DNA of 42,427 nucleotides from Candidatus Hermodarchaeota archaeon (GCA_048885925.1 JBHLLG010000023.1:1-42427); one strand, 5' to 3'; counted from the first letter of the stretch, positions 1-42,096 are shown. Program-made: numbers and translations. Notes: a model not told the origin generated them from the letters alone.

Positions 1-287
1 AAATCTCCCATGAGCTGATAAGGATCCGTGATCGTTCTTGGACATTGATTATAACAAATTCCGCATCCTGTGCATTTGCCTATCAATTTTGGTTGTCCTG
101 CTAAATCATCCCATTCCAACACCGGACATACAGCAGCACAAGTAGCACATTCAGTACAAATCCCTGTTCGAACGATCTCCTTCATTAATAATCCGAAACT
201 GTCTTTAGCGCCTTCAAGCTTCTTCTGAATATACTCAAATGAATATTCATATGGACTTTCAGTTTTCTCAGATTTATCTTCTGTCAT
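1..287 (-). CDS. 5' part of a coenzyme F420 hydrogenase/dehydrogenase beta-subunit (FrhB/FdhB-like) protein with 2x[4Fe-4S] ferredoxin domain; runs off the window edge
   Basis: Not in the ORF track. Manual translation from ATG at 287 gives MTEDKSEKTESPYEYSFEYIQKKLEGAKDSFGLLMKEIVRTGICTECATCAAVCP...GKCTGCGICYNQCPRT, with two CxxCxxCxxxCP motifs like those of ORF 14333. Confidence 0.75.
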   Translation of the reverse strand, partial: MTEDKSEKTESPYEYSFEYIQKKLEGAKDSFGLLMKEIVRTGICTECATCAAVCPVLEWDDLAGQPKLIGKCTGCGICYNQCPRTITDPYQLMGD

Positions 288-456
288 GATATTCTATTGA
301 TACCTTAAATTTAATTATAAATTCATGAAAGTTCTAATTAATAAAATAGGTTCTGTAAAAAAAATATTATTAAATTATTAAATAAGCATTTAGCCCTTTT
401 TGAAAAAAAAGTAAAAAAAGGTTAAAAATAAATTATAAAGTGAAATACTGATAAGT

Positions 457-648
457 ATGATCCCAAAAACTATCATTGAAAAATTGATTGAGAATTATGT
501 TTATGTTTACATTAAAAACATAGCAAAAGAATTTGCAGGCAAACTCCTCTCTATAACAGAAGATGACATAATAGTTTTAGAAGATAAGTATAATAATGTT
601 ATTTATATACCGATATCCGAAATTACTATTATAACTGAAAGACGATAA
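457..648 (+). CDS. small Sm/LSm-like beta-barrel protein
   Basis: 63 aa with pattern VYVYIK..EFAGKLLSITEDDIIVLED..VIYIPISEITII resembling the Sm1/Sm2 strands. Confidence 0.55.
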   Translation: MIPKTIIEKLIENYVYVYIKNIAKEFAGKLLSITEDDIIVLEDKYNNVIYIPISEITIITERR

Positions 649-682
649 ATTTATAAATATAATACTAAAATCTATGAAAAAT

Positions 683-2281
683 CTAATTATTCATATTATT
701 TGCTTCAAGCCTTTCCTCAATGTGTTTTATTGCATTTGAAGCATAGATCCTAACAACCCTATGAAAATCATTAACTCTTTTTAATAACGCACTGAGCACT
801 TTTTCATCCCCAAATGTTTCTAATAGTTTTATTATACCCAATTTAACTTTATAATTTTCATCTTCTTGTTGTCCTAAATATTCAGATATTAAAGCAATCT
901 TTTTATTAAATAATCTTCTTATATCTTCACTTTTTATTCGATACCAATTTCTTTGGAAAACATTATAAATAGCATCAATTGTGACTTTCTTAATCAACCA
1001 ATATTCTTTTTTATCGTCTAAAATATTTATTAAAGAGTCTAAAGGTTCAAAATTACCAATTTTTCCTAAAGCAATTATAGCAATTTTTCTTACATCTAAA
1101 TTTCGTACTCTTAATAAACCTAATAAAGGTTTTACAAAATCCTCTTTCCCTATCTCTCCTAAAATAAAAGCTACACTTTCTTTTATGGTATTATTATCTC
1201 GATTTAGACAAGAAAATAATTCTTCATAAGTAGCATCTTTATTATTCAAATATATTTTCTTAATAGCATCAAGAATGTATAATTTCATATCTAAATCAGT
1301 ATATTCGAAACTCATATCTTCAATGTCTAAAACGTTTAAAAGCTCGGGTACAGCAGATAATTCTCCGATTTCACCTAAAGCTTCTATAGCAGCTATACTG
1401 ACCTCATTATAAATATTATCTAAATTAGTTAATAGTAAATCTACAGCACTCTTCAGTTTTAATTTCCCACTTAAAATTACCGAATTCTTTCTTACTATGA
1501 AATCATCGTTTAACAATAATTTAATTAAATCTTTTTCAACCTTATCTTCTAATAATTTTAAAATAATGATTACGGAATTCAGAAGATCTGAATCTTCTTC
1601 TTTTAAAATTAACGTTATAACATCGAGTAAAATATTTTTATTTTGAATTAAGTTTGTTAAAATTTCAGGATATTTTGCTTTTAAGTAACTCATATCTTCA
1701 AAAGATACATTTATACTTGATAACTCATATCCAATTAATTTTACTACTTCAGTTTTATGTTTATTTGAAAATCTCTTATTATTTAATGAATTTATTGATA
1801 ATTTTATAAGATCTTCAGGATTCAGACTTAATAATTGAATTGTAACATAATCTTTTATTGAATGATAATTATTATCAAGTTCATTAATAAATAGTTGAAT
1901 TTCGTGATCTTCAAATCTAATTTTATGTATTGCCTTTAAAACTGATAACTTTATTTGGTTATCAACTTGTTCTTGTTCTAATATCCATTTTAAAGGTTTC
2001 AATCCTTTCTCATGTTTTATTCTCCCTAACGCTTTTGCGGCTTCACATTTTATTTCAATTTTATCATCGGAAACTAACAAATTCTCAAAAGTACCAAAGC
2101 ATTCATTCTTTATCGAATTTGAATTAATGCCTATTAAAGCCAAATATTTAATTGCTTCTTTCCTTTCATTGTCATCCGCATCGGATTCGATTATTTCAGT
2201 TAATAAACTCGCTGAATTCTTAAATCCTAATTCCTCACTTCTCTTAAAAATTTCTTGCGGACGAATCTTTGATTGTTGCAT
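683..2281 (-). CDS. HEAT/PBS-lyase repeat protein
   Basis: Repeated helical units such as 'EAAKALGRI', 'AAIEALGEIG', 'VAFILGEIG' and 'AIIALGKIG'. Confidence 0.9.
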   Translation of the reverse strand: MQQSKIRPQEIFKRSEELGFKNSASLLTEIIESDADDNERKEAIKYLALIGINSNSIKNECFGTFENLLVSDDKIEIKCEAAKALGRIKHEKGLKPLKWILEQEQVDNQIKLSVLKAIHKIRFEDHEIQLFINELDNNYHSIKDYVTIQLLSLNPEDLIKLSINSLNNKRFSNKHKTEVVKLIGYELSSINVSFEDMSYLKAKYPEILTNLIQNKNILLDVITLILKEEDSDLLNSVIIILKLLEDKVEKDLIKLLLNDDFIVRKNSVILSGKLKLKSAVDLLLTNLDNIYNEVSIAAIEALGEIGELSAVPELLNVLDIEDMSFEYTDLDMKLYILDAIKKIYLNNKDATYEELFSCLNRDNNTIKESVAFILGEIGKEDFVKPLLGLLRVRNLDVRKIAIIALGKIGNFEPLDSLINILDDKKEYWLIKKVTIDAIYNVFQRNWYRIKSEDIRRLFNKKIALISEYLGQQEDENYKVKLGIIKLLETFGDEKVLSALLKRVNDFHRVVRIYASNAIKHIEERLEANNMNN

Positions 2282-2578
2282 TCAAGAATCCTTCAGTTAT
2301 TTTCAAATCTCTTATTTTTTCTTTGATTATTATCATAGTAGATCAAATGAATATAAAATATTTTCTGATTTCCAACATAAATACGATTTTCCTCTATCAA
2401 AATCATATAAAATTATCGAATTCGGAAAAGCTAGAAGAAAAAAATATCAGAATTCCCCATATAATATCTTGATTTTAATTAAAATAATTATAATACTAAA
2501 TTCAAAAAGTTCATTTTAATCTAAAATCCTTGGTTCTTTATCAATAGATTTAAAATAAATAAATTCTGAACATTATCT

Positions 2579-3304
2579 ATGACTGTACGTCAATCTATAA
2601 ATAAAGCAAGGGCAAAATTTTACAATGTTGTAACAAATTTTAATGTTATAAAATATTGCGCCATGGGCGTTATGATAGGATATATTTCTTTACTCATAAT
2701 TGGGGTTATTGTCGCTGCCTTGTTAGATCCCGATGGATATACTATTTGGGATAACTGGATTTCTGATCTTGGATCAAGTGAACACACTCCAGCACCTTAT
2801 TTATATGACATTGCTTGTATTGTTGCAGGATCTCTGACTCTTCCGCTTACTTTCTATATGGAAAAATTTCTTGCCCCATTACCTAAGAGAACTAATATTG
2901 GAGAACAACACTTTTCTCGATTGCGATTTCGTTTAAGTAGTTTTGCTTTCTTATTTAGTCTTATAGGGAATTTTGGTTATATTGGAGTAGGAATATTCAG
3001 TGCAGATCGTGATTATGATGCATTTAGTGTCTTAGGACAAGGACCGCACGGTATTATGTCTTATCTCGCTTTTGGAGGCTTTACTTTTGGTGCTTTCTTC
3101 ATGGGATGGTTAATCGTGTTATATAATACTAAGATACCAAAAATTCTGGGAATCTATGGAATATTTGGTCCATTAACTGTGGCTATTTTGAATCTAATTG
3201 AAGGTACTGAATTACTAGAGTGGATGTTGCTCTTCTCAATTTTAGCCTGGATCATCCCTCTTTCTCTCATTGTGCTAATGAAACCTGACTTAATTCCAAG
3301 GTAA
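2579..3304 (+). CDS. DUF998-like membrane protein
   Basis: Multiple hydrophobic segments; 'GYTIWDNWISDLG', 'GVGIFS' and 'ELLEW' motifs. Confidence 0.7.
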   Translation: MTVRQSINKARAKFYNVVTNFNVIKYCAMGVMIGYISLLIIGVIVAALLDPDGYTIWDNWISDLGSSEHTPAPYLYDIACIVAGSLTLPLTFYMEKFLAPLPKRTNIGEQHFSRLRFRLSSFAFLFSLIGNFGYIGVGIFSADRDYDAFSVLGQGPHGIMSYLAFGGFTFGAFFMGWLIVLYNTKIPKILGIYGIFGPLTVAILNLIEGTELLEWMLLFSILAWIIPLSLIVLMKPDLIPR

Positions 3305-3361
3305 AATTAAGTATAAAATCTCAATATTTATTACAATATTTTTTTTATTTTTAAATTAGAT

Positions 3362-4042
3362 TTATACATATCTCCCAAAAAAAAATTCCATTGCTTTGTT
3401 TTCTGCTTTCCTTAGAAATTTATTAACAGCTGAAATAGTAATCCCAAAATGATCTGCTATTTTAGAGGCACTAATTTTTTTAGGTGAATTAAAGTAGCCA
3501 TTTTTAGCAGCATAAGTGGCAATATCTTTCTGGCGTTTAGTAAATTCTGGAAAAGGTATAGCAGATCTCCAAAGAGTATTATCAAACTTATCTAATTTAT
3601 CGACGTCTGTCATTCCGATAATCTTGAAATTCTTTGTAAACGATGAAATTATGTTAAATAAGTTCTCTATATATTCATTTTGAGAAATGATATTTATTAG
3701 AAGAATTTGTTGAGAAACGTGAATAGGGAACAAAAGAGCCCAAGGTCCTGAATCAAAAATAGGAAAAAATCCTGACTTATTACTTTGATTCATGATACAA
3801 ATAATTTCTTTACCAGATTGAGCCAAGAGTTGAAAAGCTTCTGGTTGAAAATAAGATTTTATATAGTTCTCAATCGCTCCTTCAATTTCATGTTTAAATC
3901 TAATTTTTTGTAATGCAAAAAAATGGGTCTGATCATATTGAAAGGCATTTAATATTTCTACAAACTCTAATTCTTGAAATAATTCAGCAAACCCAATATG
4001 TTCAAGAAAATTACCAGGTATTTGCAATCGTATAACTTTCAT
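3362..4042 (-). CDS. HTH_10 (bacterio-opsin activator-type) transcriptional regulator
   Basis: C-terminal 'FTKRQKDIATYAAKNGYFNSPKKISASKIADHFGITISAVNKFLRKAE'. Confidence 0.85.
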   Translation of the reverse strand: MKVIRLQIPGNFLEHIGFAELFQELEFVEILNAFQYDQTHFFALQKIRFKHEIEGAIENYIKSYFQPEAFQLLAQSGKEIICIMNQSNKSGFFPIFDSGPWALLFPIHVSQQILLINIISQNEYIENLFNIISSFTKNFKIIGMTDVDKLDKFDNTLWRSAIPFPEFTKRQKDIATYAAKNGYFNSPKKISASKIADHFGITISAVNKFLRKAENKAMEFFFGRYV

Positions 4043-4103
4043 TACTTTTTTACTCTTTCAAATTAATGTACTATATATATTCAAATTCTTATCTCTTTTT
4101 ATA

Positions 4104-4119
4104 GGTTGCGATCGCAACC
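4104..4119. promoter_or_regulatory. perfect 16-bp palindrome, candidate operator
   Basis: GGTTGCGA|TCGCAACC, GC-rich within the AT-rich gap between the divergent HTH_10 regulator and the epimerase gene. Confidence 0.55.
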
Positions 4120-4263
4120 CCATAACATAAATATAAATTCTTATATAATATTATTAAGGGTCAATCTAATTTCTCTCAAAGGAATAAAGATTGATGGTAT
4201 GAGAATATATCTCTTATAGTAATTAGCTTTAAAAGTTAATATTAATCAATTTCAGGTCTAAAG

Positions 4264-5244
4264 GTGGTAATTTTGAAAATTTTGCTTACAGGAGCATTTG
4301 GTAATGTTGGATTAAGTACCTTAAAAGAACTAATTAAAAGAAATTATGATATTAGAGTTTTTGATATTAAGACTAAAAGAAATAATAGACTAGCACATAA
4401 ATTTAGGAAAGATATAAAAGTTGTTTGGGGCGATATAAGAAATCCTAAAGACGTAGAACGAGCTGTTTCTGATAGAGATGTCGTTATACATGTTGCTGCA
4501 ATTATTCCTCCTCTTGCTGATAAAAAGCCGAAATTTGCAGAATCAGTAAATGTAGGAGGAACTGCAAATTTGATTGAGGCTATGCAAAACCAACCCAAAA
4601 AACCACAACTTATATTTACTTCTTCAGTTGCAGTATATGGTGATCGCCTTGAGAATCCTTTAATAACCCCAGATGACCCTATAAACCCCAATTTTGATGA
4701 TGAATATGCCAAACAAAAAGTAAAATGCGAACAATTAATTAAAAATTCGAGTCTGGAATGGGTTATCTTTCGTTTAACATATATAGTATCTTTGAATAAA
4801 CTGCAAATAGACCCATTAATGTTTGAAATGCCACTCGAAACAAGCATCGAAATCTGTGATACTAAAGATGTGGGTCTTGCTCTTGCTAATGCGGTTGAGT
4901 GTAATAAAAAATGGGGTGAAACTATGCATATTGCAGGGGGACTACAATGTCGTATTACATATCGCGAATATCTTAATGAAATGCTAGATATTTTTGGTAT
5001 TGGACGTGATTTCTTGCCTGAAGAAGCTTTCAGACAAATTAGAGGCTTTCACTGTGGCTATATGACAACAGATAAAAGCCAAGCACTTCTAAATTATCAA
5101 AGATATACTCTTGATGATTATTTTAATGCAGTACGAAAGAAAGTAGCAATTTCACGATTTTTTACAATGATATTTAAACCAATAGCCCAAAAATATCTTT
5201 TAAATAAATCCCATTATTATAAAGAATATTTAAAAAACAATTAA
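4264..5244 (+). CDS. NAD-dependent epimerase/dehydratase (extended SDR)
   Basis: TGAFGNVG Rossmann motif, HVAA, TSSVAVYG and YAKQK (YxxxK). Confidence 0.9.
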   Translation: MVILKILLTGAFGNVGLSTLKELIKRNYDIRVFDIKTKRNNRLAHKFRKDIKVVWGDIRNPKDVERAVSDRDVVIHVAAIIPPLADKKPKFAESVNVGGTANLIEAMQNQPKKPQLIFTSSVAVYGDRLENPLITPDDPINPNFDDEYAKQKVKCEQLIKNSSLEWVIFRLTYIVSLNKLQIDPLMFEMPLETSIEICDTKDVGLALANAVECNKKWGETMHIAGGLQCRITYREYLNEMLDIFGIGRDFLPEEAFRQIRGFHCGYMTTDKSQALLNYQRYTLDDYFNAVRKKVAISRFFTMIFKPIAQKYLLNKSHYYKEYLKNN

Positions 5245-5429
5245 TTTGATTTTTTACAATTAAATTAAATTTTTTAAAAAAAATTTTGTTTATACTCAAT
5301 TTTTAGAATTTATTCTTTGATTTTTTAGTAGATATATTTTCTATTCCTTATATAAAATTCAAAAAGTATTAATAAAGGTTAATAGTCCCAATAAAAAAAT
5401 TTTTTAACAATTAGAATATTCTTTTAAAC

Positions 5430-5446
5430 TAGTCAAGATTTGACTA
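5430..5446. promoter_or_regulatory. 7-3-7 inverted repeat upstream of the flavodoxin gene, candidate operator
   Basis: TAGTCAA-GAT-TTGACTA, 25 nt before ATG 5471. Confidence 0.35.
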
Positions 5447-5470
5447 AAAGAAAAAAAAGTGTAATTCCAA

Positions 5471-5917
5471 ATGAATATACTTATTGCTTATGATACTAAA
5501 TATGGAAATACTAAAAAAGTAGCAGAATTAATTGCTGAAGGTTTAAAAACAGTTGAGGGAAACACTGTTTCACTTGAAAATGTAAAAGAAATTAATCTAG
5601 AAAAAGATGAAACTTTTGATTTGATACTCATTGGTTCTCCAAACCAAATGGGGGCTCATATTAGTTCCGTAAAGAAATTCATAAAGAAACTTGCCAGTTC
5701 TTCATTAAAAGGGAATAGTTTTGCAGTATTCGACACATATGTAAAAAAAGATTTCGAAAAAGCTACAAAAAAAATGGAAAAACAAATTGCTAAAGTTATG
5801 CCAAATATGAAAAAAGTGAGTTCTGGCTTATCTATAAAAGTTGGGGGGATGAAGGGACCCATTATTGAAGAAGAACTTCCCAAATGCAAAGAGTTTGGAA
5901 TAAAATTAGCAAAATAA
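5471..5917 (+). CDS. flavodoxin family protein
   Basis: 'YDTKYGNTKKVAELIA' FMN phosphate loop; 'LIGSP' and 'AVFDTY' motifs. Confidence 0.9.
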   Translation: MNILIAYDTKYGNTKKVAELIAEGLKTVEGNTVSLENVKEINLEKDETFDLILIGSPNQMGAHISSVKKFIKKLASSSLKGNSFAVFDTYVKKDFEKATKKMEKQIAKVMPNMKKVSSGLSIKVGGMKGPIIEEELPKCKEFGIKLAK

Positions 5918-5963
5918 ATTCTAAAATCTTTTTTTTTAAAATCTCTAATTCATTTTCAATGTT

Positions 5964-6008
5964 ATTTTCATTGAAATCAGACTCTGAATTTACTTTTCCA
6001 ACCCAATT
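5964..6008 (+). repeat. intergenic repeat copy A
   Basis: ATTTTCATTGAAATCAGACTCTGAATTTACTTTTCCAACCCAATT; used as the reference copy. Confidence 0.85.
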
Positions 6009-6015
6009 ATGAAGA

Positions 6016-6648
6016 TTATCTTGATTTTCTTAACATACACCAAAGAGGTACATCAGTTTCAGGGATTATTGCATGGTTAATTATTTCAAATCCATATCTC
6101 TGGTAAAATGACAAATTTTTTTCATTATTAGTTTCCAAATAAATTGGTAACTCTTCACTATCAATTTTATTAAGCATAGCCCCGATTAGCAGCCCTCCAT
6201 ATCCTTTTCTTTGTTCTTCTGGTTTAACTGCAATATTTTGAAGATACCAATGATCAAAGGGCACAAGATCTTTATGTACAGATTCCTGATATTTAAATAC
6301 AGTTATAGTTCTTTTCATTGCTTTTAGTTTTAAACCTACTTTACGTGTTGCATAAAAACCACCATGTTTCATCATAGTCCAAGCAGATGGATAAACCTTA
6401 TCGGGGGGTAGCCATATTATCATTCCCTCTAAATTATTAGATGTTGCATAAGTTACTCCATTTCTTATTCCATACTCATAGATCATTTTAAATCCATATT
6501 TTAGTTTTTGCTTTCTTTCTTTCTCATCAGGATATACAAATATAGTAAAAGGATCATCTTGAAAAGCGTCCCCTGCTATTTCAATTGCCTTTCCAACATG
6601 CTTTGGTGTTAACTTAAAAAAACTGTCAATATCATTATTCATATTCAT
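6016..6648 (-). CDS. GNAT family N-acetyltransferase
   Basis: 'WYLQNIAVKPEEQRKGYGG' (motif A) and 'IYLETNNEKNLSFYQRYGF' (motif B). Confidence 0.9.
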   Translation of the reverse strand: MNMNNDIDSFFKLTPKHVGKAIEIAGDAFQDDPFTIFVYPDEKERKQKLKYGFKMIYEYGIRNGVTYATSNNLEGMIIWLPPDKVYPSAWTMMKHGGFYATRKVGLKLKAMKRTITVFKYQESVHKDLVPFDHWYLQNIAVKPEEQRKGYGGLLIGAMLNKIDSEELPIYLETNNEKNLSFYQRYGFEIINHAIIPETDVPLWCMLRKSR

Positions 6649-6791
6649 ATTAGAATTTAGAAAAGATTTGAATATAATAAATTAGTAGACCAGTATTTAT
6701 AAAGATCCTCTAATTTAGTATTGCTCTCATTAGAGAAAGCATAAAAATAATTCTTATTGGAATGAGTTGTCAAATTTTAACATTTGCAAAG

Positions 6792-6860
6792 AAATTTTCA
6801 GTGAAATTAGACGCTGATTTACCTTTCAATTCCAATTTCAAAGGAAATTAGGTATAAATT
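6792..6860 (+). repeat. intergenic repeat copy B (long form with hairpin)
   Basis: AAATTTTCAGTGAAATTAGACGCTGA-TTTACCTTTCAATTCCAATTTC-AAAG-GAAATTAGG; 24/28 identical to the copy A core. Confidence 0.8.
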
Positions 6861-6922
6861 TCAAAAGTTTTTTATACTCTTCTGTATATTCATATTCAAT
6901 AATTAAGAGGGTAGAAGTTATT

Positions 6923-8119
6923 GTGCTTGTTTTGGATGAATTTGGCAAAAATTATTTGCTTTTAGGACTTAGAATAGGAAAATTAATAGAGGGTTATGTG
7001 GAATCTTATTATGGTCTCCCAGAGTTGAAGGAAATAGTTGATATGGAACAGCCATCTTCTCCGAAGAGACTTTTATCTGTTTGTAACGGTCTCCAACAAG
7101 ATTTACCGAATCAAGGTTTTCCAGAGAATCGTATTAAATTTTTAAATAAAATGCTTGGAGCCATGGAAACATCATTAAAAGTAGCTAATGGTGAGAATAT
7201 TCCTTATTTAGAACAAGTTAATAAATTTTATGACATAAAACCAGAATTAGTAGATGATTCTATTATTTATAAAGCTGCTGAAACATTAGATGAAATTTAT
7301 AGTGGAAGTGGTAGTTTATCGGATCGGATTAATACTTTAGAGAAAGAACGTGCTATCCCTGCTGAAAAAATTAAAGAAATCTTTAATCACGCATTCCAGA
7401 TCGTTCAAGCAAAAACAAAAGAGTTATTTCCCAATTTATTACCAAAAAACGAAAAATTCAATATAAAAATTGTTAAAAATCAACCTTGGGGTGCAAGAGC
7501 GACATATTTAGGCAATTTTAATTCTCAAATCGAAATAAACACTGAAATCCCTGCTGATTGGACTAATGTTTTATCGTTAGCATCACACGAAGGATATCCA
7601 GGCCATCATACAGAATCTTCAGTTAAAGAAAAATTGCTTTATCTTGAAGAGCAACAGTTTGAACATTGTCTTGTATCATATCAGGTACCCAATTTGGTAA
7701 TTTCAGAAGGTATTGCCAATACGGGTATTGATGTATTATTTTCACCAAGAGAAATAGCAACAATAGGTCTTGAAGAAATTTGCCCCTTTCTTGAAAAAGA
7801 ATACAACATAGATGTGTTAATTGCTGAATATAATGCTAGAAAAACCCGTTTTGTTCTAACAAATAATCTTGCGTTTCATACTCATGTAGATGGTTGGTCT
7901 GACGAGAAATTAGTAAAATATGGATTAAATTTTGGAATTCTAACTGAAAATATCATAAAACACAGCTTAAAATTCATCCATCATCCAATAAGTTCAACTT
8001 ACGTTTTTAATTATAATATGGGGGAAATGTTAATCAAAAAAAAATATGGTGAACGACCATCTCCAGCTGATTTTAAACAACTTCTAACTCATCAGTTTTT
8101 ACCTTCAGACTTAGTATAA
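6923..8119 (+). CDS. DUF885-like protein (HExxxGHH, metallopeptidase-like)
   Basis: 'LASHEGYPGHH', 'SEGIA' and 'YVFNYNMG' motifs. Confidence 0.7.
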   Translation: MLVLDEFGKNYLLLGLRIGKLIEGYVESYYGLPELKEIVDMEQPSSPKRLLSVCNGLQQDLPNQGFPENRIKFLNKMLGAMETSLKVANGENIPYLEQVNKFYDIKPELVDDSIIYKAAETLDEIYSGSGSLSDRINTLEKERAIPAEKIKEIFNHAFQIVQAKTKELFPNLLPKNEKFNIKIVKNQPWGARATYLGNFNSQIEINTEIPADWTNVLSLASHEGYPGHHTESSVKEKLLYLEEQQFEHCLVSYQVPNLVISEGIANTGIDVLFSPREIATIGLEEICPFLEKEYNIDVLIAEYNARKTRFVLTNNLAFHTHVDGWSDEKLVKYGLNFGILTENIIKHSLKFIHHPISSTYVFNYNMGEMLIKKKYGERPSPADFKQLLTHQFLPSDLV

Positions 8120-8268
8120 CATCTTGTTCTTGAAAATTCTTCAATTCTAAAAAAGAGGTTTTACTTTCTCATTTATCAAAAGTTCAGATAATTAAGAACA
8201 AATAGTAAGTAGGTTCAAATTCCTCATCTTTAATAAATAGACAGGATTTCAATATTGTAATTTCCACT

Positions 8269-8306
8269 AAATTTTCATTGAAATCAGAAGTTGAATTTAC
8301 ATTTTC
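8269..8306 (+). repeat. intergenic repeat copy C
   Basis: AAATTTTCATTGAAATCAGAAGTTGAATTTACATTTTC; 25/28 identical to the copy A core. Confidence 0.85.
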
Positions 8307-8317
8307 GGAAATTATAT

Positions 8318-8983
8318 TTAATAAAGAAATGGAAAGAGTCTTTTAGTGTTCCTTTTATATTCTTCAAATTGTTTGCCAAATTTCTCTAGTAAAATTCTTT
8401 CTTCTTCGATTATGCGCATTCTGTATATTAAAAAAGTATATATAAACATAATAATAAGGGTAATGATACATCTGAAAACAAGACAGAATCCAATAGTAGC
8501 AATTAAACCACCAGAATACATGGGATTTCGAATATATTTATATACTCCCTCGGTAAAGAGTTGATGATCCTCTTCGATACTTAATTCTGCAGTTCCAAAT
8601 CGACCTAATTGAACTCTTGCCACGAAAATTACCAAGGCACCAGTAATATAGAGAATGAATCCTATATAACTAATAATAACACTATCCCATAAGGGGAATT
8701 TTTGGGATATAAGCAATGTATTTTCGAGATGCGCCCCTATTAGGAAAAAAGGAGATAATAAAAGCATACTTAATATTAAAATATCATAAATTTTTGAAGC
8801 GCTTTTTTCTTCTGGAAGGGAACGTATTAACGTATCTGCAAGAGTAAACATATATGCAGTGAGCAAATATATCACATAAATAGGAATCGAGTATATCTCT
8901 GGTACAAGAATTATGTAGAATATGTTTTGGTAAATAAGATAAACAAATATGAAAAGTAAAAGTTTTTTTATGATATCGTTCAT
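8318..8983 (-). CDS. isoprenylcysteine carboxylmethyltransferase (ICMT/PEMT) family membrane protein
   Basis: 'HQLFTEGVYKYIRNPMYSG' and 'RIIEEERILLEKFGKQFEEY' motifs. Confidence 0.85.
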   Translation of the reverse strand: MNDIIKKLLLFIFVYLIYQNIFYIILVPEIYSIPIYVIYLLTAYMFTLADTLIRSLPEEKSASKIYDILILSMLLLSPFFLIGAHLENTLLISQKFPLWDSVIISYIGFILYITGALVIFVARVQLGRFGTAELSIEEDHQLFTEGVYKYIRNPMYSGGLIATIGFCLVFRCIITLIIMFIYTFLIYRMRIIEEERILLEKFGKQFEEYKRNTKRLFPFLY

Positions 8984-9069
8984 TTTAAGATTTGGTTTTT
9001 TAAGAAGATTATGGGATAAATCATTATAAATATTTTATGGAAAATTAATTCTTATTCTTTCTTCACAAA

Positions 9070-9130
9070 AATAACATTAAAATTAAACTCTAAATTTGCT
9101 TTACATCCCAATTTCACAAGAAATTGGGAT
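9070..9130 (+). repeat. intergenic repeat copy D (diverged core, perfect hairpin)
   Basis: AATAACATTAAAATTAAACTCTAAATTT (21/28 to the copy A core) followed by an 11-bp stem ATCCCAATTTC-ACAA-GAAATTGGGAT homologous to the copy B hairpin. Confidence 0.65.
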
Positions 9131-9202
9131 AAAAATTAAAGAATTTCGAACTTTATATGACTTCATCTTTGGTTGAGTAATATTACGGAGGTTCTAACTA
9201 TT

Positions 9203-10408
9203 CTAAGTAACAATTGTATGTTTTCTCAAATGAATTTTTTCGAGGATAAAATGACTTAATAGATAACAAGCGATGCCTGTTAAAGGAAATACAATAGCTA
9301 ATTTTATAGTAGGATAAAGACTTAAGGATGCGAACCCAAGTGAAATAGTTATAAGGATGGGTGGATGAAGGAGGTACATATGATATGCGCTTGTAGATAG
9401 GTTTCGCAGTATAGATCCTTGCTTGTTGAATTTTGCATAAAAAACCTTAATCAATACAAAAATAACTCCCATGCAGATGACGTTATCAACCATAGCAAGT
9501 AAAAAGGCATGTATATTAGCCCCTCCGTTGAAATTTATAAAATCTACATCCATTGCTATAGCTATAAAAAAATCAATATAAATTACTATGAGTGAAATTA
9601 TTATTGTAATTAACCATATTTTGACGTGTTTTTTAGTCATTTTTTCGAACCAAAGATACCTAATGCAAATAACTCCAATGCTGAACATCATTAGATATTG
9701 AATGATTTGACCCCATGGTATTTCTAAGGGGCGTACATCTATAGGCAAGAATATACGAACTAAAAAAGTAAAAAATCCTAATCCAATAGCTATAAGAAGT
9801 AAATAAGAATATTTTGGAATGAAAAATTCCTTTGAAATTTTTAGCTGTACCGAGTCTAACTTGGTTATTTGACGCCAGACGGTATAAATTGCAGTGAATA
9901 TTAGTAAAACCTTGAGAAACCACATAGGGCCCCCAAATGATATAAAGTTAATAAAATCTTCCCAAGATAAAAATCTACTAAAATAATAATCTAGAACCGT
10001 TCCTTGCAACATTGGATTAGTATTCCAAGGAGGGATCCCTAAATTGGCTAGGGTATAAATTATAAGAGGATTTATTAATACGGTATAAACAAGGAGAGGG
10101 ATGCCGAGACGAATAAGTCGTTCTTTCCAAAAACTACTAATGCCTTTTCGATCATAACTTTTAGGAGTAAAATAACCCCCTAATAAAAAGAATAATCCTA
10201 AGAGTGAAGTTTGAAATACACCTCCAATTGAAGCCACAAGTAGAAAGAAAATTTCACTGAAAGGATCAAGTGGATTAGATTCTTTATAATACCACCAACC
10301 CACCTCAAAATAAGTTACCATCGTGTGCCAAAAAATCACTAAAATAGTAAAAAGTACTTTTATATTATCAAGGAAGTGGTATCTTATTCCCTTAAATTCT
10401 GTATTCAT
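9203..10408 (-). CDS. acyltransferase family 3 (OpgC/MdoC-like) membrane protein
   Basis: 'RYHFLDNIKVLFTILVIFWH', 'LFFLLGGYF', 'RLIRLGIP', 'PMWFL' and 'SAYHMYLLHPP' motifs. Confidence 0.9.
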   Translation of the reverse strand: MNTEFKGIRYHFLDNIKVLFTILVIFWHTMVTYFEVGWWYYKESNPLDPFSEIFFLLVASIGGVFQTSLLGLFFLLGGYFTPKSYDRKGISSFWKERLIRLGIPLLVYTVLINPLIIYTLANLGIPPWNTNPMLQGTVLDYYFSRFLSWEDFINFISFGGPMWFLKVLLIFTAIYTVWRQITKLDSVQLKISKEFFIPKYSYLLLIAIGLGFFTFLVRIFLPIDVRPLEIPWGQIIQYLMMFSIGVICIRYLWFEKMTKKHVKIWLITIIISLIVIYIDFFIAIAMDVDFINFNGGANIHAFLLAMVDNVICMGVIFVLIKVFYAKFNKQGSILRNLSTSAYHMYLLHPPILITISLGFASLSLYPTIKLAIVFPLTGIACYLLSHFILEKIHLRKHTIVT

Positions 10409-10507
10409 GAGAATGGTTTATCTTATTTTTAAGTTTGATATAAATGTGATAATTTCTAATATAAATTTGATCATTTGTTTATAACTCTTTCCTTTTTAAG
10501 ATGTTGA

Positions 10508-10538
10508 AAAATTTCATTAACATCTTTTCAAAGAAATT
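10508..10538 (+). repeat. degenerate, internally deleted repeat copy F
   Basis: AATTTCATTAACATC (12/15 to the left half of the core) joined to TTTTCAAAGAAATT, which resembles the hairpin segment. AT-rich, so the match is weak. Confidence 0.35.
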
Positions 10539-10547
10539 ATCAGAAAA

Positions 10548-11294
10548 TTAAATAGACGTATAGAAAGGAAGAGTACTGAGTTTTTTTTGGACTTCATTAA
10601 AAGGGTGTAAAGTCATTTTTTTGGTGAGGTCATAAATATCTTCTATATCTGAATAAAAGTTGTACCATTTTACAGCTTTACTATACACAGTTTTATACAA
10701 TTCCTTCTTATTAAGTAAGACATCTTTTGCCACCTCTTTTGGTAAATTTACTATTGTATCCTTGTATACTTTCTCTATAGCAGTTTTTACTTTCATTTTG
10801 GGTTTATCTTGTAATTTTTTTACCACATTATCCATATATTCCTTATATTCACTTAAATAATCAAAAGTTTTTTCAACGTAATTAATCACTTTTTGAGCAT
10901 CAATTTTATAGGCATCAAAACTTTGAATTGTCTCTTCAATCCTAACTTTCGCTTTATCTACAAGTTCATCTTTAATTTCCTTAATTAAAACATCTATTGA
11001 ACCCTCACCAGAGAATAACACACTGGCCTTTGATACTAAACTTAAAAGTAATTGCTTTTCTATTTCTATTGGTGAAGAATGAGCTTTCTTAAGAGTATTT
11101 TCAATTATTTCGGTGTGTTCTCTATTATCAATATTTATCGTATAATCCTCTGCTATCTCTTGCTGTGTTTGATTATTTTCTTGTTTTCCCTCAATGCATG
11201 AAAGACAAATTCCATCATATGTATGTACTTCCCCTATCCAAGTTGCGGTACTATATATTTTTTTACACTTCTCACAATGATAATATTTTACCAT
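10548..11294 (-). CDS. hypothetical protein with N-terminal zinc-finger-like CxxC...CxxC
   Basis: 'HCEKCKK...GICLSC'; GAGGAG RBS-like sequence upstream on the minus strand. Confidence 0.7.
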   Translation of the reverse strand: MVKYYHCEKCKKIYSTATWIGEVHTYDGICLSCIEGKQENNQTQQEIAEDYTINIDNREHTEIIENTLKKAHSSPIEIEKQLLLSLVSKASVLFSGEGSIDVLIKEIKDELVDKAKVRIEETIQSFDAYKIDAQKVINYVEKTFDYLSEYKEYMDNVVKKLQDKPKMKVKTAIEKVYKDTIVNLPKEVAKDVLLNKKELYKTVYSKAVKWYNFYSDIEDIYDLTKKMTLHPFNEVQKKLSTLPFYTSI

Positions 11295-11475
11295 AAGTAA
11301 CTCCTCATACCTTATTTTTAAGTGATTAAAATTATTATATTTAATTTTTCACTTAAATTTATATTATTTTTGTTATATTAGGAAAATAAAATTTATTAGT
11401 AATTTATAATTAGGTTAATATTCTTTATATACATATAATATTGAGTTTATTATTTTTAATTACCTTTTTTGAAGG

Positions 11476-11522
11476 AAATTTTCATTGAAATCAGACGCTA
11501 AATTTACCCTTCTATTCCAATT
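11476..11522 (+). repeat. intergenic repeat copy E
   Basis: AAATTTTCATTGAAATCAGACGCTAAATTTACCCTTCTATTCCAATT; 26/28 identical to the copy A core. Confidence 0.85.
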
Positions 11523-11814
11523 AAAAAAATAGATTTTTAAAAGAAATCAAATTTTCCTCAGAAATGTTCAAGAACGATCATTTATTCTATTAATATTTTT
11601 GATCTCCAAAAATCTTTAATTCCAAATTATCAAAAAAGTGAAAATTAGTTGGGATCCATAATCATAATCTTAAAATTTGCTTAAAAAAATCAATCGTAAG
11701 AAATAAAAATATTAAAAACGAATAAAACCTAAAAGATAAAATATTAATTTACGAAATATAAAAAAGATTGTACAATCTTGTATAAAAAAATTAGAGGTTG
11801 ATGTGAAAAGAGTA

Positions 11815-13758
11815 ATGGAAAATCAAACTCATCGGATTGGTTACTATGCATGTCAGTGAGGTATAAACATCCGAAGTAAAGTTGATTGTGATGAGCTCGT
11901 GGAGTACGTTAAAAACAAATTTCCTGATGAAATTGTTATATCAAAAAAAAACGCTTTCTTATGAACTGATAGTGCTCAAAATGAAATAATTGAGGATATA
12001 AAAGAGAAAAATTTAAACAGAATTGTAGCTTCAGCTTGAACTCCGCGTACACATGAAGTAATTTACCGAGGGACAATCGCTAAGACAGATTTAAATCCAT
12101 ATTATTTTCAGATGGTAAATGTACGGGAACACTGTTCTTGGTGTACAGATAGCAAACAAGAAGCGACAGAGAAAGCAAAAATACTTGTAAAAAGTGGTAT
12201 TGAAAGAGCTAAACTACTAGAGCCAGTTCCGATTAAAACAGTTCCTGTTACAAAAGCTAGTATGGTTGTTGGAGGAGGAATTGCAGGGATGAATGCTGCT
12301 TTGGATCTAGCTAATCAGGGGATCAAAGTCTATTTAGTAGAACAAAAAACAACTATAGGAGGTAGAATGGCTCAATTGGATAGAACATTCCCTACTGATG
12401 ACTGTGCTATATGAATTTGTGGTCCTAAAATGTTAGAAGTAAATAGGAATGAGAATATTGAATTATTAACCTATTGTGAAGTGAAGAAAATAGAGGGTTA
12501 TGTTGGTAATTATAATGTAACAATTGAAAAGAAACCAAGATATACTACAGATGAATGTAATGGGTGTGGAGCATGTGCTGAAGTTTGTCCTGTTTATACA
12601 ACAAATTATTTTGATGAATATTTAGGTACACGAAGGGCAATTGATATTTCCTTTGGTCAAGCGGTACCATTCTTATATGATGTAGATCGAAACGCTTGTA
12701 TTGAATGTTTCTCGTGTGTGGATGCTTGTGAATTAGATGCCATTGATTTTAGCCAAATACCAAAACAGATAGAGATCAACGTTGGTACGATAATAGTAGC
12801 TACAGGTTGGGATATCCATGAGCCTTATGGAGAATACGGTTACGGAGAATTTGAAAATGTTATTACTCAAGCCCAACTTGAGCGAATGTTAGCTCCAAAT
12901 GGACCACTTGAAGGACATGTGCGAAGAATTTCAGATGATAAAAAACCCCAAGAAATCGTATTCATCCAATGTGTCGGAAGTAGAGAAACAGAAAGAACAT
13001 ATTGCAGCGGTGTATGTTGCATGTTAGCTTTAAAAAATGGAAGATTATTAAAAGAAGAATTTCCAGAAGCAAATATTACAATTTGTTATATTGATATAAG
13101 AACAAATGAAAAAGGTTTCGAAGAATATTTCCAACGTGCTAAAGATTTTGATATTAAATTGGTTCGAGGTAAGGTTGGTGAGATCTCTGAAGATCCTGAT
13201 ACTAAAAATATAATACTCCGTGTTTATTCGTCTTTAACGGATGAGATTATAAAAATAGATGCGGATTTAGTTGTTCTATCTACAGCAGCGCTCCCATCAA
13301 AAGGCACCCAACAAATTGTTCAAGTGTTGAATCTTGATACAAATACATATGGGTTCCTTACAGAATCACATTTCGGTTTAATGCCGCAAGAAACTAAAAC
13401 AAAGGGAATATTTATTGCGGGTTTTGCTCAAGGACCAAAAAATATCTCATATTCCGTGTCTCAAGCCAGAGCTGCCGCAAGTAAAGTAGCTGAATTGACT
13501 TCCCCAGGAGAAATCGATTTAGAACTAATAACTGCGGAAGTAGATAGTGAATTTTGCATATCATGTAGAAGATGTGAAAAAGAATGTCCTAAGAATGCCA
13601 TCAAAATAGATGAAGCGATTGGTGCTTTTATCGATGAAATTAACTGCGATGGTTGCGGTATTTGTGCGACCTGTTGTCCTACTCAAGCAATTGACATTAA
13701 ATATTATCGTGATCACCAATTATTTGCTGAAATTACTGGTTTATTAGGAGGTGAATAG
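11815..13758 (+). CDS. hdrA: selenoprotein heterodisulfide reductase subunit A, ~647 aa, 4 in-frame UGA (Sec)
   Basis: One frame from ATG 11815 (alternative GTG 11803) to TAG 13758, interrupted only by TGA at 11857, 11962, 12037 and 12412. Contexts are ACQUGINI, AFLUTDSAQ, ASAUTPRTHE and DDCAIUICGPKM, each matching a Cys in the paralog at 17270. Joins track ORFs 12112-12414 and 12430-13758. Confidence 0.93.
13747..13754 (+). promoter_or_regulatory. Shine-Dalgarno site for vhuD
   Basis: GGAGGTGA 10 nt before ATG 13765, inside the hdrA 3' end. Confidence 0.7.
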
Positions 13759-41046: not shown

Positions 41047-42096
41047 TTGGTTGCGGTGTCAAATACCTTTAATGGTTCAGTAGAAAAAAATCCTAATGAA
41101 GACTTGTGCCTTGTATATATTTTGTATTTTGACGAAAAGAAAGGACAAATTCCGCTTTTAATGTATCCTGATGATAGACTCAGAAGTAATAAAAAATATA
41201 TGCGACCAATAAATTATCATCCTGTTTGGTTTTTAGAAACGGAAGAACTTGATCATATTGATTTAGAATACAAGGGTTATACCTTTTTCGGTAAGAAATT
41301 TAAAACTATATCAAAAAGGGAAAAAAGAAGAGCTGGACTTGAAGAAAAAACCCCAGAAACGATAGTAATTATAGTTTCACTCCCCGTAGAACTAGAAATA
41401 TTTGGCGATGAGCTCATTAAAAAATTAGTAAATCAATTAAGAGATAAATTTGAAGATCAATTTACTGAAGTAATAGAAAGTGAAATTGTCGCGGATAATG
41501 TAATTAAAACTCCAAAAATTCAAGAACGAATCTCAAAGGGAACAAAAATTAAGGTATTTATGCGTGAGCTAATTGATAATACAGTTAGAAATTATTTTTC
41601 AACAGCTATAGAGAAAAAATCAGAATCATCATCTCTTAAAACTCAAAAAGCTATTTCATATTTTGCATTGAAAGGGTTCGAATTTTCTCCATCAAGTAGT
41701 TTAAGAGGAACAAACAATTTTGAAGATATAGAACTCTTTGATTTTGTAAAGAAATCAACTGAGGAGATTGTTTCAAAGCTTCCAATTTCAATTAATAAAA
41801 TAAATTTCATTGAAAACAGCCAAGAAATTGAAATTATAGCAAAAAACAATACTAATAAAGAATTGACACATATTTCAATAACAATTACTCATGTGAAAGA
41901 ATATTTTGAACAAGAAATAATGAATCAACGGGTTGATTTTTGGTTTCCTCAAGAGGAACTTTTATTTGTTTCCCCAGTGGTTCCTCATATTAATGAATAT
42001 TTAGTTACTATTAAAGAACAAGATAATAAGGGAGAAGATAAAAAACTATTAACCCACAGGATTGATTTAAAAACAATAAATAAAATAACAAGTTGA
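41047..42096 (+). CDS. hypothetical protein with uDENN/longin-like N-terminus and beta-rich C-terminus
   Basis: 'VYILYFDEKKGQIPLLMYP' matches the FDxxxGxxxxxxYP pattern typical of uDENN domains. Confidence 0.6.
   Translation: MVAVSNTFNGSVEKNPNEDLCLVYILYFDEKKGQIPLLMYPDDRLRSNKKYMRPINYHPVWFLETEELDHIDLEYKGYTFFGKKFKTISKREKRRAGLEEKTPETIVIIVSLPVELEIFGDELIKKLVNQLRDKFEDQFTEVIESEIVADNVIKTPKIQERISKGTKIKVFMRELIDNTVRNYFSTAIEKKSESSSLKTQKAISYFALKGFEFSPSSSLRGTNNFEDIELFDFVKKSTEEIVSKLPISINKINFIENSQEIEIIAKNNTNKELTHISITITHVKEYFEQEIMNQRVDFWFPQEELLFVSPVVPHINEYLVTIKEQDNKGEDKKLLTHRIDLKTINKITS

Follow-up and report, generated by a model that had tools for sequence, protein, structure and literature searches.

The stretch of DNA analyzed here, referred to as the window, comprises 42,427 nucleotides (nt) of a Candidatus Hermodarchaeota archaeon (GCA_048885925.1 JBHLLG010000023.1:1-42427). 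Between an SDR gene and an hdrA-like gene it carries a segment in which single accessory genes alternate with copies of a short repeat, here called R. Each module consists of a gene followed by R, and a set of six modules is inserted between the SDR gene and hdrA (Table 1). An earlier interpretation made without database searches, the sequence-only reading, had placed five copies of the repeat here in one orientation, and all five are found at those places on the plus strand. A 30-nt core with up to three mismatches matched three times in the window and not once in 100 shuffles, and a five-copy profile run against the whole 3.9-Mb genome recovered the window copies with E values of 1.6e-10 to 5.1e-5. 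Over 28 nt, the copies are 75–89% identical to the copy at 11478, in agreement with the core identities of 21–26 of 28 given earlier. The claim that the window holds no other copy also stands, the single extra match, at 41802, being sub-threshold (79% of 28 nt; E 98). Of the weak remnant proposed near 10510, the position is borne out, as in the arrays of both G022:C28 and G001:C78 an intact R follows the acyltransferase homologue at this place; the score of the candidate at about 10510–10545 is insignificant alone (6.1 bits, E 0.03 within 161 nt). In the profile search this genome holds eight to nine R copies, five of them in the window. The others lie at C11:16663, C126:2762, C151:4224 and, weakly, C151:2739, and the next-best match has an E value of 0.47. 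With just three or four further copies, R is not a genome-wide repeat of the repetitive extragenic palindromic (REP) type, and the scatter that the sequence-only reading had weighed against itself is not seen.

Comparison with three relatives of the same genus (G014, G002 and G042) delimits the insertion. There, the SDR orthologues (69–81% amino acid (aa) identity) lie directly upstream of hdrA, the two genes about 1 kb apart, with synteny on both sides and neither R nor any of the six genes between them. Homology to G014 ends at 5327. By blastn it resumes at 11705 (G042) and 11771 (G014, G002), with a weaker MAFFT alignment from about 11560, just past the last R; to the right of this copy, chromosomal homology with the relatives is back after 40–250 nt. 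Gene order at this locus is not stable across relatives: three of them lack the whole segment. Its cassettes recur in other arrays among other neighbors. The sequence-only reading had single genes bracketed by repeats, which holds, and counted five of them, missing the flavodoxin gene as a sixth. Flavodoxin orthologues (66–81% aa identity) occupy a different conserved context in five relatives, which makes the gene useless as a synteny anchor; that neighborhood is present in this genome (C1) without the gene, and the flavodoxin is part of the insert. The slot that it occupies in relatives is itself variable: this genome (C1 236300-239300; L151 3372-6071), G021 and G042 each hold different extra genes there, with no R. 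In other genomes R also occurs near orthologues of the window genes at 2579–5244, which lie a few genes from the insertion point, both in L035 (G014:C12, ~740 nt upstream of the orthologue of 2579–3304) and in L175 (557-607), and this neighborhood seems to be a recurrent landing zone.

The modules of the window recur beside R in other genomes. Relatives of the GNAT lie between two R copies in G012:C79 (83% aa identity), in G001:C392 (64%) and beside R in metagenome contig L180 (74%), and an 89%-identical block common to the window and G012:C79 ends at 6852, in copy B. Metagenome contigs that share the repeat alone part from the window at 5964 and 5997–6000, in copy A. The 398-aa protein of module 3 is 80% identical to the product of a gene between two co-oriented R copies in metagenome contig L252. 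The acyltransferase-3 gene has relatives between two R copies in G022:C28 (87% aa identity) and twice in the G001:C78 array (58–59%), with other neighbors, and the 248-aa protein of module 6 matches R-adjacent genes in metagenome contigs L173 and L266 at 64–65%. For the 398-aa gene, the 248-aa gene and the GNAT, the orientation relative to R in the metagenome contigs is that of the window.

Distribution of R and reassortment of its modules

The conserved block of R spans about 47 nt, from about −8 to +38 (TTTTTCAAAGGAATTTTCATTGAAATCAGACNCTGAATTTACCTTTCC), and begins some 8–10 nt upstream of the core described in the sequence-only reading (TTTTTCAAAGG). Sixty-two copies from several genomes align without gaps at 83% identity per column. 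A single central position, index 22, is free to vary (T 131, G 99, A 10, C 7 in 247 copies), while the rest of the core hardly changes in at least 10 genera of one family. Two short dyads, TTTCA-T-TGAAA and TCAG-ACN-CTGA, lie inside R, a T-run often precedes it, and the core ends in TTTAC, with a hairpin following in many copies. Copies diverge 3′ of the block; a subset, the long form, continues with a hairpin (CCAATTTCACAGAAAATTGG), a TATA-like stretch (TTTAAAAAGG) and GGAGG...ATG opening a short reading frame. On the minus strand of three further loci, unrelated leftward open reading frames (ORFs) enter R (L288 991-2337; L285 7959-9149 and 11122-12471; L287 12138-13988). All that these ORFs have in common is a stretch of 13–20 residues at the N-terminus (MNGKVNS.S...), which is read from the reverse strand of R; the core variants there carry an ATG inside R, as a start codon supplied by R or as an incidentally open frame.

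Of 23 other genomes in the genus sampled first, 22 have the 28-nt core, and a sequence-only model found R in 105 of 130 sampled family genomes, at 1–38 copies each and in at least 10 genera. Nineteen genomes of three sister families of the order (f2-f4) returned one marginal match. In exact-pattern scans, R occurred in at least 118 metagenome contigs and in at least 107 stretches of species-representative genomes, all but one labeled Asgard. The exception (L125), from a Nanopelagicaceae bacterium bin, is R-bearing and 97.5% identical over 1705 nt to the uncultured archaeon contig L148; it is probably an archaeal contig mis-binned into a bacterial genome. Viral contigs of IMG/VR gave no exact match to the 27-nt core.

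Array statistics were compiled from 247 unique R copies at 131 loci, with neighboring pairs less than 6 kb apart and ORFs of at least 80 aa. All but eight copies are intergenic (239/247), and neighboring copies are spaced by a median of 1180 nt (range 277–4011). Two regularities stand out: i) neighboring copies are co-oriented in 130 of 131 pairs, and ii) 94 of 130 intervals hold one ORF. Genes face at random with respect to R, with 81 ORFs on its strand and 86 on the other. Metagenome contigs replicate this pattern, with 48/48 pairs co-oriented, one ORF in 33/48 intervals and strands split 30 to 26 among 118 contigs. Both the one-per-gene clustering and the constancy of repeat orientation irrespective of gene strand, reported earlier for the window, thus extend to the family. 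In a closed genome R occupies at least eight separate places, and its orientation switches between arrays along the chromosome. Even lone copies mark module remnants: in another locus, L038 (8765-9992; G021, a closed 2.3-Mb genome), a lone R is followed by an uncharacterized gene and a 126-aa fragment of the window GNAT (73% identity). At such kilobase spacing no CRISPR array is in question, and no 18-mer recurs four or more times at 45–110 nt in this genome.

The cargo is mixed, including GNATs, alpha/beta hydrolases, carboxylesterases, acyltransferases, methyltransferases, NosD-type beta-helix proteins, TPR proteins and LRR proteins, and the recurrent neighbor families are all of cargo type. 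Array ORFs of other species mostly have no counterpart in this genome, whereas their flanks do (not tallied), and the same flanking gene in two species adjoins arrays with no gene in common. Contigs often end within ~100–150 nt of R (G002:C15, G002:C12, G003:C26 and G001:C392), as do 34 of the 166 R copies in metagenome contigs, counted within 150 nt of an end. Copy numbers per genome are lower bounds, because the arrays break short-read assemblies, and with so many contigs broken at R the accessory genome is probably under-assembled.

Blocks shared between different assemblies locate the breakpoints of this variation. Among 47 unique blocks of at least 400 nt and at least 88% identity, with 80 internal ends, 20 ends fall within R and have matching R coordinates in the two partners (11 at −15 to +4, nine at +38 to +62); the remaining 60 lie elsewhere. 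Since R makes up just ~2.5% of the sequence of each locus, the ends inside it are far from chance. Beyond all 20 of these breakpoints, tblastx finds no similarity within 2.5 kb, so that these blocks shared between species end exactly at the edges of the repeat, as the sequence-only reading would predict, with unrelated DNA next to them. Single modules of 0.6–1 kb in L024/L150 and L067/L075 are 93–94% identical with unrelated DNA on both sides, and L043/L116 share a 95%-identical block between genus g16 and a genome syntenic with the window.

Elements encoding an integrase beside R

A tyrosine recombinase is physically linked to R in relatives and in metagenome contigs. In the metagenome contig L257, a ribonucleotide reductase gene is followed by R, a ribbon-helix-helix (RHH)-like gene of 173–182 aa, an overlapping gene for a 306-aa tyrosine integrase (PF00589, 80.4 bits), a gene for a 505-aa P-loop protein, a small ORF, a NosD-type gene and a second, direct R. 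The arrangement R-RHH-integrase recurs in G040, in three copies of which one lies at a contig start, and in G131. Spacing within it is fixed: R starts 639–641 nt before the integrase start in all four loci with a detectable R (L257, L285, L287 and L288), a fifth having a partial R at the contig start, and 121–123 nt before the RHH start in nine loci, RHH remnants included. The second direct R follows 5.1–9.3 kb downstream, giving elements of 5–9 kb (Table 1). In L287, from G131, both end copies carry the same private core variant.

The short frame in the long form of R is the N-terminus of the RHH protein. The 29 unique long forms include six that lead into an intact 172-aa RHH ORF and at least 15 in which the frame breaks off after 2–69 codons; by these truncated RHH starts, the arrays contain decayed left ends of integrase elements.

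By curated cut-offs the R-linked integrase is neither XerA nor IntI, scoring 52.6 bits against the integron-integrase model TIGR02249 (cut-off 265) and 25.4 against NF011946 (cut-off 435). Strong matches to the family occur in 19 of 134 family genomes, with many copies broken by in-frame stops. Its database relatives carry generic names only and come from Asgard-labeled bins, and a phage record collection gave no match. None of the element genes scanned was recognized as a conjugation gene. The sequence-only reading had named a serine recombinase and an HUH transposase beside a tyrosine recombinase as possible linked enzymes; in the five genomes examined, serine recombinases amount to one broken copy, and the Y1 transposase PF01797 is absent from all five, a control search having matched 6 of 14 reference genomes.

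The first gene on contig C131 of this genome is an integrase gene cut by the contig start (residues 221–301, 94% identity); the 422-aa and 629-aa genes of the element follow, 92% and 94% identical to those of the R-flanked element in G131. Its upstream part, where R is expected, lies beyond the assembled sequence. The earlier proposal of a recombinase encoded away from the window array agrees with this fragment. The 629-aa protein itself, a GHKL ATPase (HATPase_c_3; G000:C131 2702-4591, L287 8238-10127), is 94% identical between the two species and may be defense or DNA-handling cargo.

Origin of the arrays and comparable systems

Taken together, these observations make it likely that R is the core att site of small integrative elements of Asgard (Promethearchaeia) archaea that encode an RHH protein and a tyrosine integrase, and that the window array is an accretion of six att-bounded modules. 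A circle with one R would recombine with a resident R and thereby place the incoming DNA between two direct R copies, and repeated integration would build a co-oriented array; direct repeats, constant orientation and array growth would all follow from such entry of a one-R circle. Loss of the integrase backbone would leave single cargo genes, accounting for the single-gene units and the truncated RHH starts. Later recombination between R copies could reassort, excise and transfer modules, and recombination within R would put the breakpoints there. The catalyst would be the integrase acting in trans from an intact element, possibly together with homologous recombination. The integrase presumably cuts and joins R, crossover would fall near +38 of the block, and single modules may move as circles. 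The gene-capture or shuffling site of the sequence-only reading is thus supported, and is here refined to a putative att core of integrase-bearing elements subject to decay.

Somewhat more speculatively, this Asgard family may run an integron-like exchange of its own, in which hundreds of single-gene modules would be moved in trans by the RHH and integrase pair of small autonomous elements, between species and genera, without viruses or conjugation. If so, accessory enzymes and surface proteins pass between species and genera. The family-wide 47-nt site, the candidate recombinase module and several hundred gene modules with base-exact borders can be searched for, and R with its integrase, if active, would be a native site-specific integration tool for a lineage with almost no genetics.

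Several observations weigh against an att-site origin. At the window itself, the left junction has no recognizable R copy, just a weak resemblance (CTATTCC...ATAAAATTCAAAAAG), and the flanking words GATTTTTTA and GATTTTTA at the junction are too AT-rich to count; the entry site of the array in the relatives has no R either. This assembly did not yield the RHH gene, and C131, a 6.2-kb contig of a binned genome with 4.4% contamination, may belong to another organism. Around six integrase copies of 65–86% identity (L286, L290, L291, L279, L280 and L277), no R was detected at E<=0.05 with filters off; either the family uses other sites too, or the ends have decayed. Array-rich genomes mostly lack such an integrase, G002 (38 copies) and G006 (closed, 21 copies) having just a XerA-type PF00589 match. 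Probed with XerA and with another integrase fragment of this genome, on contig C76, the 131 genome loci showed no recombinase near R, either among their 759 ORFs or in six-frame searches. The empty site of the window array is present in three relatives; among assembled contigs there is no excised circle and no pair of empty and occupied sites within one population, and the joints are ambiguous. Three of them (6847>5954, 11512>8261 and 6849>11465) join complete repeats whose sides are short (31–36 nt) and probably derive from other arrays. None of the sequencing runs listed is an RNA run, and uncovered stretches in some runs carry no weight as evidence.

The most serious competing explanation, which we regard as unlikely, makes the arrays a passive graveyard: full elements integrated in tandem and lost their backbones, the modules are immobile, and reshuffling is homologous recombination between repeats of 47–150 nt with no role for the integrase. 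The truncated RHH starts, the many integrase copies with in-frame stops and the scarcity of integrases in array-rich genomes all fit this explanation. So does the position of the breakpoints, since a crossover anywhere within a conserved block would leave them at its two outer edges. It accords poorly with the single modules of 93–94% identity that lie in unrelated DNA in different species and with the block shared between genus g16 and a genome syntenic with the window. Conservation of the core position by position, with one free central base, likewise fits recognition by a protein better than a plain need for identity. This explanation overlaps with the accretion of att-bounded modules, and neither excludes the other.

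A role of the host recombinase is far less probable. Modules of pdif type carry accessory genes between short recombination sites and rely on a recombinase encoded elsewhere, as the R arrays do; the host Xer acts on pdif sites, which are 28-bp 11-6-11 dyads that alternate in orientation. A Xer/dif site is defined as 28 bp with 11-bp inverted arms and a 6-bp spacer (PMC2958812). XerA is the sole tyrosine recombinase common to all five genomes examined and passes its NCBIfam cut-off (248 bits vs 220), which speaks for R as a dif-like site, either in pdif modules or in Xer-exploiting elements. R is, however, an asymmetric 47-nt block without an 11-6-11 dyad: the best arm pairs match at 7/9 or 8/11 with spacers of 3, 6 or 7 (spacers of 2–10 tried). 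It occurs at eight or more places of a closed genome instead of once, its neighboring copies are direct and not alternating inverted pairs, and it is tied to an integrase of its own. R is also missing from the 19 sister-family genomes bar the one marginal match; XerA itself was not searched there, and its presence is assumed on the textbook basis of the spread of XerA in archaea (PMC2958812).

We give as little credence to R as a cis-regulatory or architectural element (an operator, insulator or bidirectional terminator) that happens to mark accessory genes. The two dyads, the T-run and the intergenic position would suit such an element. Its orientation follows the array and not the gene, interspecies homology breaks at it in 20 of 20 cases, and it flanks integrase elements as direct repeats. 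Rfam returned no match in the window at E<=10 and none at E<=1 in three array loci, long forms included, and folding stability is unremarkable (z −0.42 for RNA, −0.50 for DNA). Least credible of all is R as an end or target of an IS200/IS605-type, REP/RAYT or miniature inverted-repeat (MITE-type) element, which the TTTAC end, the following hairpin and the strand-specific arrays might suggest but which the missing Y1 transposase, the lack of terminal inverted repeats, the low copy number (1–38 per genome) and the array-to-array change of orientation along the closed chromosome contradict.

In its working the system resembles an integron or an accretion of att sites, yet every tested defining feature of integrons and of Xer/dif modules is missing from it. 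Cis-mobilizable elements (CIMEs), found next to integrative and conjugative elements (ICEs) of streptococci, are att-bounded modules without recombination genes; they originate when elements integrate site-specifically in tandem and then decay, and a related intact element can mobilize them. The R modules, too, lack recombination genes, have the putative att sites of an integrase element at their borders and would share this origin and mode of mobilization. They differ in being mostly single genes of ~1.2 kb, in arrays of up to nine or more, spread over a whole archaeal family; moreover, no conjugation gene was recognized among the scanned element genes, and the primary target is no tRNA or fixed gene.

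Clusters of attC sites have been reported in Archaea (Ghaly et al. 2022, PMC9668308). R arrays are like integrons in having one recombination site per gene with the sites co-oriented, in carrying accessory enzymes such as GNATs and esterases, and in often lacking a linked integrase, as do clusters of attC sites lacking integron-integrases (CALINs), with a tyrosine recombinase as the presumed catalyst. In contrast to attC, R is conserved in sequence and not in fold, and it lacks the core sites. Pairs of RYYYAAC...GTTRRRY 30–130 nt apart number zero on either strand of 5245–11810, against 1.55 ± 1.7 in 200 shuffles, consistent with the earlier statement that attC ends are missing, and the 62-copy alignment has no conserved AAC or GTT. 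The R-linked integrase falls below the IntI cut-offs and lies inside a mobile element beside the RHH gene, with no fixed attI platform, and the arrays sit at many chromosomal places. Nor are the cassettes co-oriented; because they face either way, the module genes must carry their own promoters. Given the truncated RHH starts in the arrays, tandem integration followed by decay has no less support than an integron-style capture of promoterless cassettes.

Yucahu-i and mini-Yucahu are integrative plasmid-like elements of Atabeyarchaeia (PMC11529989). Yucahu-i is, like the R elements, a small Asgard integrative element; its first gene encodes a tyrosine integrase, and it has a helicase or ATPase, short AT-rich att sites at both ends and smaller derivatives. 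Its att site, an 11-bp motif unrelated to R, occurs at one unique place, and the accessible part of the description mentions neither multi-module arrays nor a family-wide 47-nt core. No description of R or its arrays was found in the literature on Asgard and Lokiarchaeia cassettes, integrons, mobile elements and genomic islands, a search that did not cover the supplementary Asgard attC coordinates of PMC9668308, and the core sequence was not found in literature text. Some R arrays may coincide with the Asgard attC arrays listed in those coordinates, even though R lacks attC core sites.

Genes and coordinates of the locus

Pfam assigns families to the GNAT, the PEMT/ICMT-family methyltransferase and the acyltransferase-3, as the sequence-only reading had proposed for these genes. 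Behind its DUF885-like assignment of the 398-aa protein is a match of only 22 residues, at 14.4 bits against a cut-off of 32.4, and its zinc-finger orphan, the 248-aa protein, has no family match.

Table 1. Features of the inserted segment and its flanks in the window, with the direct R copies of integrase elements in other loci
Feature	Position	Strand	Evidence
Left chromosomal flank, SDR/epimerase-family gene	4264..5244	+	Pfam 3Beta_HSD/Epimerase
Inserted segment, six genes and five R copies	5328..11560 (about)	.	absent from three same-genus relatives
Module 1, flavodoxin	5471..5917	+	Pfam Flavodoxin_5/_1
R copy A	5953..6011	+	E 1.6e-10
Module 2, GNAT acetyltransferase	6016..6648	-	Pfam Acetyltransf_7/_1
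R copy B, with hairpin CCAATTTCAAAGGAAATTAGG	6783..6852	+	E 1.7e-9
Module 3, 398-aa protein without family	6923..8119	+	no Pfam at E<=0.01
R copy C	8260..8306	+	E 1.5e-7
Module 4, PEMT/ICMT-family methyltransferase	8318..8983	-	Pfam PEMT 56.6 bits, ICMT 49.5 bits
R copy D, core degenerate, hairpin CCCAATTTCACAAGAAATTGGG intact, remnant of long-form extension	9059..9151	+	E 5.1e-5; aligns with long-form copies
Module 5, acyltransferase-3	9203..10408	-	Pfam Acyl_transf_3 84.5 bits
Candidate decayed R remnant	10509..10545	+	6.1 bits, E 0.03
Module 6, 248-aa protein, N-terminal Cys-rich stretch	10548..11294	-	no Pfam family
R copy E, terminal, beside right junction	11467..11522	+	E 2.3e-10
Right chromosomal flank, hdrA-like gene	11815..13758	+	orthologues 87-90% aa directly after SDR gene in three relatives
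Direct R copies, L257	2111, 7215		
Direct R copies, L287	4237, 13557		
Direct R copies, L288	2284, 9195		
Direct R copies, L285	1, 9078, 12418		

The hdrA-like gene on the right flank forms one frame of 647 codons only if four in-frame TGA codons (15, 50, 75 and 200) are read through. Their contexts, YACQ-G, FL-TD, ASA-TPR and CAI-ICGP, are cysteine-type positions, which suggests that the gene is a candidate for a selenoprotein with four selenocysteines.

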